A stretch of DNA of 63,826 nucleotides, filler included, from Rhabdomonas costata (taxonomy: Eukaryota), in NCBI GenBank assembly GCA_019059605.1. It is 35 parts of 35 records of this genome, joined end to end, with 100 filler letters (N's around TTAATTAATTAA, not from the genome) between each part and the next. Parts side by side here need not be neighbours in the genome. Positions count along the whole stretch, not along the records: positions 58,452 to 60,176 come from JAHMHO010010028.1; 34 more parts are not named here. One strand, given 5' to 3'. A program made the translations under genes and the position numbers. Under the pieces are notes generated by a model. It did no database searches, was not told where the DNA came from, and saw only the letters and a program-made list of their open reading frames with translations. Shown one piece after another: positions 2,751-60,176 of this stretch; within the stretch, counting starts at the first letter, position 1, and each line of letters starts with the position of its first letter.

Positions 2751-5700
2751 CCGAGCGGGTCTCGAAGGAGTCACGCTTCCTTTCTTTGTGACCTTCTACT
2801 TTTGAAAGCTTTGTGAAACTGCATTGTGCAGAATGAAGGGGAGTGTGGGACCACGGGTGTGGGGTGATTCTCTCTTAATGCCTCTTCCGACTGGTTTTTG
2901 GCTTCTGAAAAGTTTCCTTTTGTGAGATCTTTTCAGGGCGGAACACATTGCCAAGTGCGGCAGCATCCCTGCTTCCCTGACTGCTTCCCTTTCTTTCTGC
3001 TTCATCGACAGGATACCGTGACTTTGGTTACGTGGAGATATTAAGATGAACATTTCTGTCTTACCCTCGGGAGGAGGGTGGGAAGATAGATAACGCATCA
3101 GGAATGATTTTTGAACACAGCTCCACTTTCCAAGCTTGTGAAGGGTTCCAAATTATGCCCTCGGACAAGTGCAGGTCCTGCCTGGCTCTCATTCCACTCA
3201 CTCCGGTCCAAACCTACCCCTTTTTACCCCAATGGGCTCTCGGTTTTCCCCCATCGCACAGCCAAATTCCAGTTGAACAACCGAACCAAGCCGCAACGAT
3301 TCATCGAAGCGTTTTCGACCATAGCGAATCAAGAACAGTGATGGCTTGGGTCGTCGAACATACCACGAGCATGTGTGGTCACATAGGCATGTCGTGCTTC
3401 CTCTGTTCTGCCTCTCTTACCCTCCTTTCTTTGTCAACAATATGGAAACATTAAGGGGCTCGCGGTTCGACCGATACGCTGAAGCACACGTCAACCCAGT
3501 ACTACCTGCAGTAACCCACACAGAATCCCACGCCATGCAGCAAGAGACCCACAAACNNNNNNNNNNNNNNNNNNNNNNNNNNNNNNNNNNNNNNNNNNNN
3601 TTAATTAATTAANNNNNNNNNNNNNNNNNNNNNNNNNNNNNNNNNNNNNNNNNNNNGGGTTGGTGTGTGTTTTTATGAAAACTTTTGGCAAACGGTTTGC
3701 AAATAAACGAACGAACGTGAAAGCTAAAAACTTTTGATCCAACAACCAGCCGTTCAAGAAATGCCATGTGACATATTAGGATCTCTGCGTGTAAACTGCA
3801 CACCGCCTCAGAGAACGTGGTGGAATGGTGACCACGAAGAAAGATTAAACACTAAAACATACACACTGGTTTTATGGCAAAATCAACCGACACAGAACTA
3901 TTTATAGCGCACAAAAATATAAAATAAAACCAATTTTCTTGTCTGACACGTAGTTTCACTCAGCTCATTGGGGCCGCAATGGCCTTGGAAAAGACAAATT
4001 AAAAGTCAGCAAACGTGTAAATTACCAAAATGGAGCACAGCGTACCACAGAGCACGAAAGCAAGCAACAGCAAAGCCAAAGGTCCAAATGTAACAGCTTT
4101 GACAGTGAAATATCCGTCCGGTGCCACCATACACAGGTTGGCCGGAATCATTTTTCCCAAAACGTGGCATTACATACCTATGGCACCTTGTTACATACTG
4201 GCTTGTTGCGGCCATTTTCCACATGCTTGAATTTTGCCCCTTGTCGATTGCCGGGAATGAAGAGCAGCTTCATCCAATTGGAGACGCTATGGATGATTTT
4301 ATCCCGATCACTTGTTGAGGATTGGATCTAGCAGGTGTCAGCATCACTCGGTCTTATTTTCCGCGTTTCCAAGCGGAGCAGCCATCCGTGTATCCGATTA
4401 CCAAGCCGGTTTGTCACACTCTATCAACTAGGAGTTAACTCCGGAACTCGTCGAACCTGATTGGTAGGGAGTGGTTTTCCAACTCTAAACTGTTATGAAA
4501 AACACTTTAACAAATTTACTGCTGGGGTGTGTTGGCACGAACCTCTGGAAGATGTGGGTTTCAACCAGCAGGAAGTACTCTGCAAACAACGTCTTTGGCG
4601 GTTTGGGCTCCGCCTGGCCATATGCAGCAATCATGTGCTGCCCGAGTGTTTGGGGATTGGGCTGCTACCTGGTAATTTTGTGGTTATCTCCGCGCTGCTG
4701 CTGCTGCTGATTCTCCATGACATAAGCCCTCAAGGTTCGGTGGGCAGACCCGGCTACCATGGAAAAGGTGAGATGGGGGGTGGGGAATTCCGTATTGGGT
4801 GTTGCTTCGCACGAGGTGTCCCGCAACTCCCTTGGCAGCAAACACTTGCTGAAAAAGAAATTCTTACAGAAAAAAGCTATGACTGCACTTCTAGAGTGTG
4901 AATGGAAGCACAGACATGAAGGCGAGCGGCGCCTTCCATGAAATGACTTAGTAATCCTTAGTGCTGTCACTGTGTACTTGCGGTATTTTTGGCAAAGCCC
5001 AATATGTCGTGAAAGCAAATCTTATCCAAAAAATTACATTCATCACACAGCTTAACTTGCCGCAAAAAGCCTTGATAACATCATTTTTGCTGTCCCTATG
5101 AGCCGCCAGCCAGAAGATGGTCTCGTCTCAACGATTTCAGCTTCTGTACAAAGAGGCATACGGACAGTACTGTGAAACCAACAGTACCACGCTACGTTCA
5201 GCGATGATTTTGTCAAGTACCTCGTCCAACAGCGACAACGGAGGATATGAAAAAAATGATTTTTTACGGTCACCAGTTGAATTTGAAGGCGTTTTAACCC
5301 CCGGCCCGCAGGCCTCCATGATCAGCCGAATAGTACCTGAGCAACTGATGATGTTTTCAGCTTGCGAACAGACCCCCCCAACCNNNNNNNNNNNNNNNNN
5401 NNNNNNNNNNNNNNNNNNNNNNNNNNNTTAATTAATTAANNNNNNNNNNNNNNNNNNNNNNNNNNNNNNNNNNNNNNNNNNNNGCCGGCCTTCGCACCTA
5501 AGATAATCTTATCCCAATTTTCTGCCAAAGCCCAGCAATGACAACTCCAAAATTCCCCAATGGCAAAAGAAAACGTTTAGCAGTGCAGAATTTTAAACGC
5601 CCCCCTCAACGCAACTGTCGCCAAAAGGTTCAACAATTGTCCCCAAGAAAGTTTGTCCTGACGAAACTAAAGAATTGGGAAGTGAAACGCAAGGCAAGTG

Positions 5701-6201: not shown

Positions 6202-7889
6202 GTGTGCCTGATATATGGCGCGGGTCATGTCAAAAGCGAGAATTACTGCTGAGATAATAATTCGGCAAAACACACCACGGGAGCTCATAGACGAGATGCC
6301 ATGACACTCGGTAAGGTCGTTTACTGTCCAAATAAGCTTGAAAATGTCCTGAAGCACCACATAAAGTCGGGTGCCATGAGAGAAAACCACGTCCCTATGT
6401 CGCCTTTTCGTTGCGCCGTTTTGGGAAGATACGTATTCCCGCCAAACAAGCTGTTCAGATGCAACCATTGAACAGAAATTCTGCAGCAGACTTTTTTATT
6501 AGTAAATATTACTTATAATCAAAAACCTCCATCTCAAAAACGTTCACTTGGTGACGCGGGTAATTGAATGTGGCGTAGTTGAACCATGGTGCCCCTCTGC
6601 CTTTTGTGTCTGCCTTTTGAGAAGTGAGAAATAGGGACAAGGAGCACTGACTGACCATTTAAGCTTGATTAGGTGAAGGCTGCTTTTCGTGGGTGGAGTT
6701 TTGCATGTGATGTTGTCGACCGTGAAGATGCGGCTGTTCTACGGGGCTACTGTGGAACCCGAAGACGTCTCGCCCTCTTGAGGAGGAAAAGAATGGTTGA
6801 GGTTCAGGAAGCAAATAAGAGGGAACGAGAGTCGGGAATTTCCTGGTCTGTTTTCGGCTTTTTCAGGAGCTCTTGAGGACACTCGGCCGCCCCAGACCAC
6901 TTCAGGCTCCCAATGACCCTGCCTCCGCTTTGGCTGGGGGCTCAGTTGTCGGGTCTTTTCAGACAGCCAGACAACCTGAAGGTGTCTCCCTGGTTGGTGT
7001 TTAAAAGGGCTCTTCCTGAGATATTGCACTTCAGCGCCCTCGCCGGGACAGGCAATTTGTTGTGGACAATGGTCCTTGCTTCAGTTTTTCAATGCGTAGT
7101 GGCTGCAACGACAACTGCAACAGTGGTGACCACAGATACCCACGTGCTCAAAGAGCAGGCAGTGCAGATCTGCACGTGACCACCCCCACCCCCCAACCAC
7201 ACCCACCACANNNNNNNNNNNNNNNNNNNNNNNNNNNNNNNNNNNNNNNNNNNNTTAATTAATTAANNNNNNNNNNNNNNNNNNNNNNNNNNNNNNNNNN
7301 NNNNNNNNNNGGTTGGGGGGCGTTATACCGTTCAACGCCCTCCCTTCCCCAATACACCTGACCGATATATTGCATCCGCGGTCGGGACGTAACAATTCAC
7401 CATGGAATTTTTTTAGTCCAATTCAATGACCGAAAATACCGTGTGCCATGTCTGTTTTGATAGTGGTTACTGTGGTATGCGCTGGTTGGCTGCTGCGCCA
7501 CTACTGCCACCACGGGTGGATGCTGAGTCGGCATGGTTCACCCTTGGGCCGGGTTGGCATTGTTTGCATCGGCTATTTTATCTGCTTCCCTGTTCCCTTA
7601 CTACTGCTCATTGATCTGATGTTTCAGAGATGTTCAATAGAAGACGCCAAAACGCTTCTTTCGTTGATAGGACGAAGACCCACTGATTTCTGGAGAAGCC
7701 ATCCAAACTTTTGGGGATGTGATTTCCCGGGTGCATATTTTAGCTGCCACCGGATCTCTCTAACTTACCGTCTTCGCTCGTTCTTCTCACCTAAACTTCC
7801 TCGAGTTGTTTCTCTCTCTCTCTGCCTGTCTTTGTGGCTCCCGCGCACACTGTTCACGCCCACGAATGAGTGGGTCTTGGTCTTCCGCG

Positions 7890-23490: not shown

Positions 23491-24192
23491 GTGTCCCCAC
23501 ACACTCACACAAACATATCCTATGGTGCTGCGTGGTTGAAACTCTCGGGTTTTTTTTTTGCACTAGGCAAAGGGCTGGCTGGTGGTGGGGCTTTCTGGAG
23601 GCTGCTTTTAAGCATTACAACACTCTTGTGCCGCTTCCTGCCACGAAATACGAAATAGGAAACACAAACNNNNNNNNNNNNNNNNNNNNNNNNNNNNNNN
23701 NNNNNNNNNNNNNTTAATTAATTAANNNNNNNNNNNNNNNNNNNNNNNNNNNNNNNNNNNNNNNNNNNNTGTTGGGTGTGTGTGGTTTTTGTGGTAGGTG
23801 TGGCTTTTCCGGGGACTGGGGCAGGAGAATATATGGGATTGCGGCCTGTGGACTGCGCGCAGTGTTCGGGAACACACTCTTTACAAACTCTTCACACACT
23901 CTTCACAAACTCCTCTTTTTCCCATTTCTTCTTTATATAATCGCGCGCGCAAACTCATCTTCAACACACGCTTTCTTCATTCTTGTTGTGACCTGCCATA
24001 GAATATTTTTCTTCTTCTGATATACCGCTGCAAAATTTGGCGCCACCCTGCCTTCTCACTTTCGCGTCTCTTTTTCACCGCGCCACCGTTTTCTCATTTG
24101 GCGCACGCCACCGATTTCCTAGAATCAGAAATCGGGATTAATCCAAATCGATGGGGATTTCTGAAAACGGGAAAGTGGTGGGGTTGGCTCAG

Positions 24193-58451: not shown

Positions 58452-60176
58452 GTTTTTTTGGTAAGTTCTAATAGTAAAGGATTTATTGGTGGATGTTATG
58501 ATGGTCGATATATCTATTTCTCTCCGTTTGAAAGTACATATACAACTGCATCAAATGGTCAAATAACAAGATATGATACATCATTACCATTTTCATCTTC
58601 TACAGCATATACTGTATTTGATACAACAACTGTTAATGCAAATAGTAAAGGATTTTTAGGATCTGTTTTTGATGGTAAATATGTATATTTTATTACATAT
58701 ATTGCAGATGGAACAAGTGGAACTACATATTCAGGAATGTTAACTCGATATGATACTACATTATCTTTCACATCATCATCTTCTTATACAACATTTGACA
58801 CATCAACAGTTAGTTCAAACAGTAAAGGCTTTCACGGATTAGTATATGATGGTCGTTATTTATACTGCATACCATCTTGTATTAGTTCAGGATATTCTGG
58901 TCAAATTACTAGATATGATACAACTGCATCTTTTACAACAAGTTCATCATATTCTGTATTTGATACAACAACTATAAGTTCAAACAGTAAAGGTTTCTTT
59001 TTCGGTGCATATGATGGTCGATATCTGTATTTAATTCCATTTAGTACTGGAATTATAACAGGACAAGTAACACGATATGATACAACATTGTCATTTACAT
59101 CTGCAAGTTCATATTCTGTTTTTGATATGACTACAGTAAATTCAAATGCTAAAGGTTTTTGTGGTGCTGTATATGACGGTCGATATCTTTATTATATTCC
59201 ATTATCAAATACTATTTTTATACGTTATGATACATCGTCTTCTTTTACTTCATCTACATCATATACATCTTTTGATGTATCAACTGTTGGAGGATCAACT
59301 TTTTATACTGGTATATTTGACGGTAGATATATATACCTAAATCCTTCTAATTCTGGTAAAATATTAAGTTATGATACAACAACATCTTTTACATCAAGTT
59401 TATCATATACTTTATTTGATGCAACAACCGTTAATTCATCATGTAAAGGCTTTAATGGTGCAGTGTACGATGGTAACTATATTTATTTTGTTCCATATTA
59501 CAATGGCAGTTCATTACATGGTACTGTATTACGTATTGTAGCTAATAAATCGATAAATACCATTATAAATTCTGTCAGACCTCAAATTACACTACAAAAT
59601 TCAATTCGTGATGTTGTATTATCTTCACCAATTAGTGGTAACTTATTGACTTATAATGGTGTCAATTGGACAAATTCAGATACAATTCCTGATAATATCT
59701 TTTTTATTAAAGATGATCTTGATGGTACCAAGAAATTACAATTTCAATTATCGGGAATAACAAGTGGACAAACAAGAACATTGACAATTCCAGATTATAG
59801 TGGTACTATTGTAGCATCTAGTAATTCTCAAACTTCTGGTTATACATTAATTTCAAATGGAACAACCCCATCATGGAGTCAAATATCAACCAGTAACATA
59901 AGTGATATATCAATATCATCAGTAGCAGATGGAAATTTACTTGTTTATTCATCTACATCTTCTAAATGGATTAATGCAGATACAATTCCTGATAATATTT
60001 TCTTCATCAAAGATGATGCTGATGGAACTAAGAAATTACAATTTCAATTATCTGGAATAACAAGTGGTCAAACAAGAACATTAACAATTCCGGATGCATC
60101 ATGTGTAATTGTTGGAGACACAAATACACAAACTTTAACAAACAAAACTTTAACTGATTCAACAAATAATATTATG
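58452..60176 (+). CDS. Intronless AT-rich ORF open at both ends (~575 aa): beta-propeller repeats plus viral fibre-like repeats; probable giant-virus or phage structural protein
   Basis: Seven repeats of SKGFxGxx(Y/F)DGRYxYxxP...RYDTxxxFxxxxSYxxFD; two units of D(V/I)x(L/I)SSxxxGNLLxY...WxN plus DTIPDNIFFIKDDxDGTKKLQFQLSGITSGQTRTLTIPD; TQTLTNKTL. A/T-ending codons are unlike the host's. Confidence 0.8.

Follow-up and report, generated by a model that had tools for sequence, protein, structure and literature searches.

The stretch of DNA analysed here (hereafter the window) comprises 63,826 nucleotides, spacers included, from the Rhabdomonas costata assembly GCA_019059605.1, and consists of 35 contigs of 1724-1741 nt each, separated by spacers of N around TTAATTAATTAA. 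The subject of this report is one of these contigs, JAHMHO010010028.1, located at positions 58452..60176 (+ strand), whose 1725 nt form one open frame of 575 codons (P0001) encoding a beta-propeller followed by two fibre repeats. The contig is a fragment of a gene, as both ends are cut and neither a start nor a stop codon is present in the frame. Its GC content is 0.296, compared with 0.453-0.586 in the other 34 contigs, and at codon positions 1, 2 and 3 the values are 0.31, 0.49 and 0.094, respectively; for comparison, third-position GC (GC3) is 0.39-0.71 when taken over the longest frame of each of those 34 contigs. Frame +1 is open across 100% of the target, whereas each of the other contigs is open over 17-51% of its length at most, making 58452-60176 the sole single-frame contig among the 35. 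Within this frame no stop codon was observed against 44.7 expected from base composition, while the five other frames contain 25-65 stops. The target is thus a real coding sequence, as a frame of this length would not stay open by chance (P = 6e-21).

The contig opens with an 11-nt tail containing only G and T (58452..58462, +), which probably derives from a degenerate amplification primer. Starts of this type, with at least eight G/T-only bases, were found in 22 of the 35 contigs, and 22 of the 35 likewise end in at least eight C/A-only bases. These tails are most often exactly 10 nt and extend up to 32 nt (for example at 3657-3674, 23770-23795 and 7179-7210); a C/A tail is not present at the 3' end of the target. 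The tails are probably untrimmed remnants of a degenerate G/T whole-genome-amplification primer, and the terminal ~10 nt of most contigs in the window are probably not genomic. The tail on the target indicates that its DNA was physically present in the amplified sample, and also that its first 3-4 codons may not be genomic. A first-pass annotation, made from the sequence alone, had described the contig as foreign to the other 34, as the only uninterrupted single-ORF (open reading frame) contig with A/T-ending codons, and as sharing their G/T tail and thus the same amplification; the composition, coding density and tail counts presented above agree with it on all of these points.

The propeller occupies 58464..59540 (+; residues ~5-363) and was delimited with AlphaFold2 and sequence motifs. 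Predicted strands place its seven blades at residues 11-57, 68-116, 127-171, 182-225, 236-275, 284-323 and 334-363, and the blades follow the pattern KGF-x-G-x-x-(F/Y)DG(R/K/N)Y-(I/V/L)Y...RYDT...F...SY..FD.TTV. The motif DG[RKN]Y occurs seven times, at residues 17, 74, 133, 188, 242, 290 and 340, with a spacing of 48-59 residues. The first-pass annotation had listed seven DGRY repeats; the number stands, but only five read DGRY, the others being one DGKY and one DGNY. Its suggestion of a seven-bladed propeller was confirmed by the monomer model, which was built from a 60-sequence alignment and has a predicted local distance difference test score (pLDDT) of 93.9 and a predicted template-modelling score (pTM) of 0.92. 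The model contains 27 strands in seven blades, which are four-stranded except for blade 7 with three. The frame opens inside blade 1, where the N-terminus is cut by the contig end, and the 28th strand was presumably lost with it. Homologues of 390-410 amino acids that consist of a leader and a propeller align with the target from their own residue ~18-30 through to their C-terminus, and therefore the fragment holds nearly the whole propeller domain.

A fold search against solved structures returned virginiamycin B lyase (Z 30.2, root-mean-square deviation 2.2 Å over 282 residues), YncE (Z 28.9) and many WD40 proteins (Z 26-27), to which the resemblance of Z 26-30 is that expected of a seven-bladed propeller. 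These proteins and hydrazine synthase beta share the seven-bladed fold with the target, but identity across all the matches listed is only 7-15%. Because the ranking is flat, with Z of 26-30 over 50 entries, and identity is so low, no function can be drawn from the fold matches. No Pfam family reached its cut-off in a scan of the target protein, the best being PEPCK_N (E 0.015; 15.4 bits, the cut-off being 23.8), and the NCBIfam scan likewise yielded no family above cut-off. Assignment to the WD40, Kelch, YVTN or NHL families was considered and rejected, as no Pfam profile rose above its gathering score.

The propeller is joined to the fibre part by the sequence RIVANKSIN (59532..59558, +; residues 361-369), and RIVANKTVN stands at the equivalent junction of P0272, a full-length relative described below. 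Fibre repeat 1 (59583..59867, +; residues 378-472) is composed of sub-motif (a), IRDVVLSSPISGNLLTYNGVNWTNSD, and then sub-motif (b), TIPDNIFFIKDDLDGTKKLQFQLSGITSGQTRTLTIPD. Fibre repeat 2 (59880..60176, +; residues 477-575) runs into TQTLTNKTLTDSTNNIM and is cut by the contig end. The consensus of sub-motif (a) is ...D-x-x-(I/L)-S-S-x-x-x-G-N-L-L-x-Y...W-x-N-x-D, and that of sub-motif (b) is TIPDNIFFIKDD-x-DGTKKLQFQLSGITSGQTRTLTIPD. When repeat 1 is aligned with residues 477-572 of repeat 2, 59 of the 96 columns are identical, and the DNA cores of the repeats (59664-59795 and 59964-60095), which lie exactly 300 nt apart, share 116 of 132 bases. The motif TKKLQFQLSGIT occurs at residues 426 and 526, and TQTLTNKTL at residue 559, as the first-pass annotation had noted when it described a duplicated module. 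Its broader proposal, a modular protein of virion-surface type in which a propeller precedes fibre repeats, is upheld by the seven blades and the two ~100-residue repeats. The monomer model of residues 365-575 is mostly extended and of low confidence (pLDDT 69), and a fold search with it gave no match at E<=0.001. A profile of the fibre repeats matched none of the PDB sequences, and neither did the whole protein. The motif TLTNKT was not found in a literature search. Pfam did not detect Peptidase_S74 in the fragment, the C-terminus of the protein lying beyond the contig.

The fibre repeats belong to phage virion protein families. They match phrog_13925 (3.1e-22, residues 496-568), phrog_25093 (4.2e-9), phrog_692, a 'virion structural protein' (8.3e-8), and phrog_13853 (2.1e-5), and they are 77% identical to part of a podovirus ORF. 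This ORF, of 1778 amino acids (L150:2659-7992), lies on a 15.4-kb IMG/VR contig with a GC content of 0.36 and is the closest fibre relative with a known context. Its residues 1036-1130 align with residues 481-575 of the target at 73 of 95 positions, matching it through the last residues of the contig before continuing past ...NNIM. The podovirus protein thus has the (a)+(b) repeat in common with the target, along with the identical end TNKTLTDSTNNIM, but differs in having no propeller, a higher GC content (0.36 versus 0.30), a far larger number of repeats and, at its distal C-terminus, a domain not reached by the fragment. On one side of the ORF lie a T7 capsid-assembly protein (PF05396, 8e-8) and a major head protein (phrog_3437, 1e-35), and on the other lie tail proteins (phrog_394, 1e-21; phrog_376, 2e-13). 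The capsid protein of L150 is nearest to those of marine podophages of 32-37 kb, including Methylophilales phage MEP301, Pelagibacter phage EXVC031P and Vibrio phages. As a separate observation, the record HQ332136.1 / NC_023841.1 ('Dunaliella viridis virus SI2', 37 kb) encodes a major head protein 34% identical to that of L150 and is listed beside the Methylophilales and Pelagibacter phages; judged by this protein, the record looks like a tailed phage and not an algal virus.

Other searches with the fibre part led to similar proteins. A tblastn search of 50,697 phage records matched 24 of them (22 Rhodobacter phages and 2 Rhodococcus phages), in every case to residues 383-554 only. In Rhodobacter phage RcZahn the matching gene 39 immediately follows the genes for the minor tail protein, a host-specificity-like protein with a gene transfer agent (GTA) TIM-barrel-like domain (gene 33) and the distal tail protein. 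RcZahn gp39 and the gene 12-type proteins of 21 other Rhodobacter phages share sub-motif (b) with the target (47-60% identity over 60-143 residues); unlike the target, they have no propeller, are annotated as hypothetical and come from GC-rich phages (GC 0.61 in L030). Within the one length class searched, a large protein collection held 1015 relatives of residues 370-575, several of which carry Peptidase_S74 or Mtd_N, or PF07484 and PF00386, which we take to be the tail collar and C1q domains. One protein (P0134) is 84% identical to fibre repeat 2 over 91 residues. When the repeat alignment was used to scan IMG/VR, 307 relatives were obtained; the 80 loci retained lie mostly on contigs of 12-80 kb. 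The immediate neighbours of the ORFs carrying the fibre module numbered 119, or 108 once 11 from near-duplicate loci had been dropped. Of these 108, 78 had no PHROG match at E<=1e-8; the 30 that matched comprised head or virion structural proteins (9), tail proteins (5), lysis proteins (4), homing endonucleases (4) and proteins of unknown function (8). The one terminase family searched for, PF03237, was found in none of five viral records, too narrow a search to be informative. The Atlas clusters nearest to residues 365-575 are labelled Viruses/Uroviricota, at scores of only 0.88-0.89, which have the standing of leads.

The propeller belongs to a very large family of proteins. When the whole 575-residue fragment was compared by phmmer with 1.84 billion cluster representatives, 5157 matched at E<=1e-3, a count that covers matches to either module in searches dominated by the propeller, and 966 at E<=1e-30; none of the representatives was near-identical across the whole fragment. 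IMG/VR contains 112 relatives of the propeller, and in the loci inspected the domain lies within an ORF of 1311-1631 amino acids in a tailed-phage structural block. Thus, one such ORF accompanies head/protease, virion structural and DNA-ejection proteins (L002), a second adjoins the large terminase and a tail-fibre protein (L004), and a third matches tail-spike PHROGs and K1-lyase_C (L080). The most similar propellers, at 54-61% identity, are found in proteins whose other parts match tail-fibre, tail-spike or fibre-assembly PHROGs, or Peptidase_S74. Examples are P0046 (phrog_863), P0261 (tail spike), P0027, P0030 and P0297 (phrog_9942) and P0242 (tail fibre and Peptidase_S74). Some of these similar propellers are binned in metagenome-assembled genomes (MAGs) of Parachlamydiales and Patescibacteria. 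Peptidase_S74 was found in the propeller relatives P0242, P0243 and P0297, and not in P0272.

The family also includes giant proteins of 2000-3600 amino acids, encoded in tandem arrays, that have several propeller copies each and often a C-terminal Peptidase_S74 chaperone (L012 2475-22429, L034, L043 and L062 1082-13471; P0241-P0253 and P0341-P0348). A Parachlamydiales MAG encodes three of them (HW387_1025, 1026 and 1729), and in both L012 and L034 three propeller proteins of ~650 amino acids are flanked by two of ~2300. A propeller at 29% identity is present in a 1241-residue protein (P0314) from a transcript of the malawimonad Gefionella okellyi (EukProt EP00698), and in one Atlas cluster close to the propeller 58% of the labels are Eukaryota (Haptophyta); the transcript and the cluster could represent contamination, viral transcripts or real eukaryotic copies.

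Among 239 near-length proteins both modules occur only in P0071, in reversed order, and among 96 longer proteins P0272 has the module order of the target. P0272 is a 1252-residue metagenomic 'hypothetical protein' from JGI (Joint Genome Institute), encoded on an 18.6-kb contig, in which fibre repeats are followed by the propeller, RIVANKTVN and then TKKLQFQLSG...TQTLTNKT...NNVM. It is thus like the target in module order, propeller family, RIVANK junction and the TKKLQFQLSG / TQTLTNKT repeats, and unlike it in that identity is only ~40% (38-40% across both modules) and that its propeller region aligns over a shorter length, a gap taking the place of one blade. A second protein, P0337 (1245 amino acids, on a 19.0-kb contig), has the N- and C-terminal domains of P0272, but carries extra repeats where P0272 has the propeller. 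The C-terminal domain and repeats of P0272 also match the L150 podovirus ORF, at 31.6% identity (E 1e-8) and at 57% over 165 residues. Because the centre differs between P0272 and P0337, and P0272 matches the L150 ORF, the target is probably a member of a family of fibre proteins of ~1250-1800 amino acids with an exchangeable central part, in which the propeller would be a mid-fibre insert and not the tip. The first-pass annotation had proposed that the propeller is a terminal receptor-binding 'head'; this is probably not so, given its mid-fibre position in P0272.

In a careful tree of the propeller, comprising 65 sequences after exclusion of identical rows and of rows with fewer than 280 (loci) or 180 (proteins) aligned residues, the target groups with P0272 and L012 (support 99/88). 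This group is nested in a 16-row set (99/99) that also holds the phage loci L001, L084, L080 and L081.

Collectively, these data suggest that the contig carries part of a gene from a tailed phage (Caudoviricetes), prophage copies included, and that this gene encodes a long tail fibre or receptor-binding protein, a reading to which we assign a probability of roughly 0.65. We favour it because both halves of the protein, the sole full-length relative with the same module order and all the genomic contexts that could be read point in this direction. Four points are established here: the propeller fold, the anatomy of the repeats, the presence of homologues of both modules among the proteins of phage structural modules, and a full-length relative in which the modules follow the same order. 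Of the two halves, the fibre module reads as the discriminating one, being typical of phage virion proteins, and a position in a phage structural or tail module was seen for the relatives L150, L002, L004, L080 and RcZahn. The phage was probably short-tailed, T7-like and a parasite of an AT-rich bacterium. The most likely source of the target is therefore a phage whose bacterial hosts accompanied the cell, and not a protist giant virus.

It should be emphasized that several observations weigh against a tailed-phage origin. The 1.7-kb contig is all ORF, and carries no flanking gene and no terminase, portal or capsid gene. P0272 has no PHROG match at E<=1e-6, and a scan of viral contigs found no match for it and only distant relatives of P0337. 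In IMG/VR the fibre module has 76 carriers, and the propeller was found in none of them. The propeller family occurs mostly in cellular MAGs; indeed, all 19 of the species-representative genome loci are MAGs, 16 of them bacterial (Myxococcota, Planctomycetota, Verrucomicrobia, Peribacteria and others) and three DPANN archaeal, and the sister locus L012 lies on a 90-kb contig of a 'bacterium' MAG where its neighbours have no PHROG match. There are also links to giant viruses. Four proteins of 1371-1464 amino acids (P0326, P0331, P0332 and P0336) are paralogues of the major capsid protein of nucleocytoplasmic large DNA viruses (NCLDV) with an inserted propeller: Capsid_N at residues ~211-312, the propeller (31-38% identical to that of the target) at ~345-705, Capsid_NCLDV at ~712-854 and then ~600 further residues. 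In the careful tree an approximately unbiased (AU) test does not reject a clade uniting the target with these fusions (log-likelihood difference 3.07, p 0.458), and the position of the fusion clade is uncertain because of its long stem. The top two fold matches in BFVD are Klosneuvirus collagen-repeat proteins (best E 6e-13, template-modelling score 0.61-0.63, 16-17% identity). Finally, fibre sub-motif (a), without sub-motif (b), occurs in an NCLDV record (G009/L233; 188 kb, GC 0.28), where the match to the target is weak (E ~1e-3).

It could be argued from the MAG loci that the target is a cellular gene, encoding either a surface protein or secreted adhesin, or else a fibre belonging to a tailocin or to an extracellular contractile injection system (eCIS), in an AT-rich bacterium or a symbiont of the DPANN or candidate phyla radiation (CPR) type living on, in or with the cell. 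We consider this unlikely, although it is the strongest of the alternatives. Beyond the 16 bacterial and three DPANN loci and the 90-kb contig of L012, it draws on the many homologues of 390-500 amino acids that are a leader and a propeller only, one of which has the source name 'predicted small secreted protein', and on proteins from Parachlamydiales and Patescibacteria MAGs that are 50-57% identical in the propeller. The available text of PMC11722414 describes bacteria of the Parachlamydiales/Patescibacteria type as common in single-cell protist libraries, and that of PMC12923769 describes propeller-plus-shaft fibres of contractile injection systems, with eCIS fibres joining beta-propeller lectins to shafts. 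The fibre module, however, is typical of phage virion proteins, and the MAG proteins closest to the target carry tail-fibre PHROG modules and Peptidase_S74, and so may themselves be prophage genes or mis-binned phage genes. In addition, no signal peptide or cell-anchor domain is visible in the fragment, whose N-terminus is cut off.

A virus of the eukaryotic cell is less likely again. The source would be a giant virus (Nucleocytoviricota), as the first-pass annotation had proposed, or a small virophage- or polinton-like element, with the propeller and phage-like repeats decorating its capsid or fibres. A GC content of 0.30 and a GC3 of 0.09 suit AT-rich giant viruses as well as they do AT-rich phages. 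One of the capsid-propeller fusions occurs in a complete 207-kb IMG/VR genome with inverted terminal repeats (G004), which has seven Capsid_NCLDV matches, one of them in a 1359-residue frame beside a propeller match (L113 6001-6759; ~175.4-176.6 kb). A 5-kb contig of a giant-virus MAG contains a propeller ORF of 1521 amino acids, and in G009 two adjacent paralogous ORFs of ~220 amino acids (L233 9794-11262) hold two copies each of L-x-D-L-S-D-V-E-L-T-D-P...Y-D-G-T-N-W-V-N, a form of sub-motif (a). The 18.6- and 19.0-kb contigs of P0272 and P0337 are also of a size that might suit small protist viruses.

Set against these points, the module TKKLQFQLSGIT...TQTLTNKT (sub-motif b) was found in none of the four records searched, the complete NCLDV genome G004 included. 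Only one of the nine large (>110 kb) records with fibre-motif matches, G009, has an NCLDV capsid, and there sub-motif (a) is alone and its match weak. The propeller is 31-38% identical to the NCLDV fusions, sharing their DG-x-Y / RYDT blades, compared with 43-61% to phage and MAG proteins. In the fusions it is placed between two capsid jelly rolls and not in a fibre, and in both free trees they fall outside the 16-row set containing the target. Furthermore, the context was that of a tailed phage in every case found for close relatives of either module. A giant-virus source is thus not the best explanation in view of the phage PHROGs, L150 and the phage contexts of the propeller, although the capsid fusions and the AU test retain it as a rival. 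It is doubtful, in particular, that a virus of the eukaryotic cell, either a giant virus with an AT-rich genome or a small element (~19 kb) resembling a virophage or polinton, acquired a phage-type modular fibre with its propeller; were this so, the propeller would be a surface-display module moving between phages, giant viruses and cells, and the cell would be host to, or carrier of, an undescribed virus.

It is highly improbable that the target belongs to the eukaryotic genome, whether as one of the cell's own genes or as viral DNA inserted long ago: the shared amplification tail shows only that the DNA was present in the amplified sample, and, the Gefionella okellyi transcript (29%) and the Eukaryota-labelled Atlas cluster (58%) notwithstanding, a GC3 of 0.09 against 0.39-0.71 elsewhere in the window, an uninterrupted frame where other contigs are open over <=51% and the lack of a host-like flank leave nothing to suggest integration.

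Prior odds do not settle the source, because single-cell protist libraries contain endosymbionts, Patescibacteria, giant viruses and phages together, as the available text of PMC11722414 reports. On the preferred interpretation, that of a tailed-phage fibre, the phage DNA would have been in the sample as free particles, as a prophage, or within a bacterium that the cell had ingested or was associated with, and would have been co-amplified with the eukaryotic cell. The protein may assemble as a homotrimer. The (a)+(b) repeats (...D-x-x-I...G-x-L-x-Y...W-x-N..., then F-I-K-D-D-x-D-G-T-K-K-L-Q-F-Q-L-S-G-I-T...T-Q-T-L-T-N-K-T-L) would build a three-chain, beta-structured shaft, from which one seven-bladed propeller could be looped out per chain, the three forming a lateral mid-fibre platform. 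The ligand of this platform would be a sugar or another polymer on the surface of the host bacterium, and the distal C-terminal domain, beyond the contig, might make a second contact.

The model for this arrangement is Gp45, the receptor-binding protein of Staphylococcus phage phi11. The available text of PMC4901313 describes Gp45 as having a trimeric stem, an off-axis platform of three propellers and a trimeric all-beta 'tower', and proposes that its propeller is the site at which sugar (N-acetylglucosamine, GlcNAc) is bound. By analogy, the target protein most likely works like Gp45. The likeness is architectural and functional only; Gp45 has a five-bladed propeller and a stem that is a helical bundle, whereas the target has seven blades and beta-type repeats, and with this blade number and no PDB sequence match it is not a member of the Gp45 type. 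The mid-fibre propeller of the phi11 plan is seen in P0272, the target fragment showing only the C-terminal flank. A seven-bladed phage propeller is known in gp131 of Pseudomonas phage phiKZ (PDB 4GBF, via the available text of PMC4901313), which resembles the target in its peripheral location on the baseplate or fibres and its suspected role in receptor binding. In contrast with the propeller proposed here, that of gp131 is a C-terminal domain and not mid-fibre; gp131 is not among the fold matches listed, which leaves room for similarity between the two structures.

Little else in the window could be annotated. Rfam and tRNA scans of the window gave no match, and Pfam, applied to the longest frame of each of the 34 other contigs, gave a single match, to a pyruvate phosphate dikinase fragment in contig 1 (201-1079, - strand; PEP-utilizers 2.6e-10, PPDK_N 4.8e-7). 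Contig 1 ends in a (GA)n run (1700-1729).

To find part of a phage fibre gene in a single-cell assembly made from amplified DNA is not unusual, and what follows from it in practice is decontamination: the target, and probably other low-GC contigs of the assembly, should be flagged as non-host and not annotated as genes of the eukaryote. The contig also provides modest evidence of phage, or of bacteria infected by phage, carried by the cell as prey, epibionts or symbionts, which is common in single-cell libraries. More unusual is the occurrence of the propeller within capsid paralogues of giant viruses; a literature search, judged on titles and the starts of abstracts, returned no account of NCLDV capsid-propeller fusions, and they constitute a separate lead worth following. 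Both modules of the target represent large unnamed families that have neither a Pfam model nor a solved structure, and defining these two families would improve the annotation of phage receptor-binding proteins.

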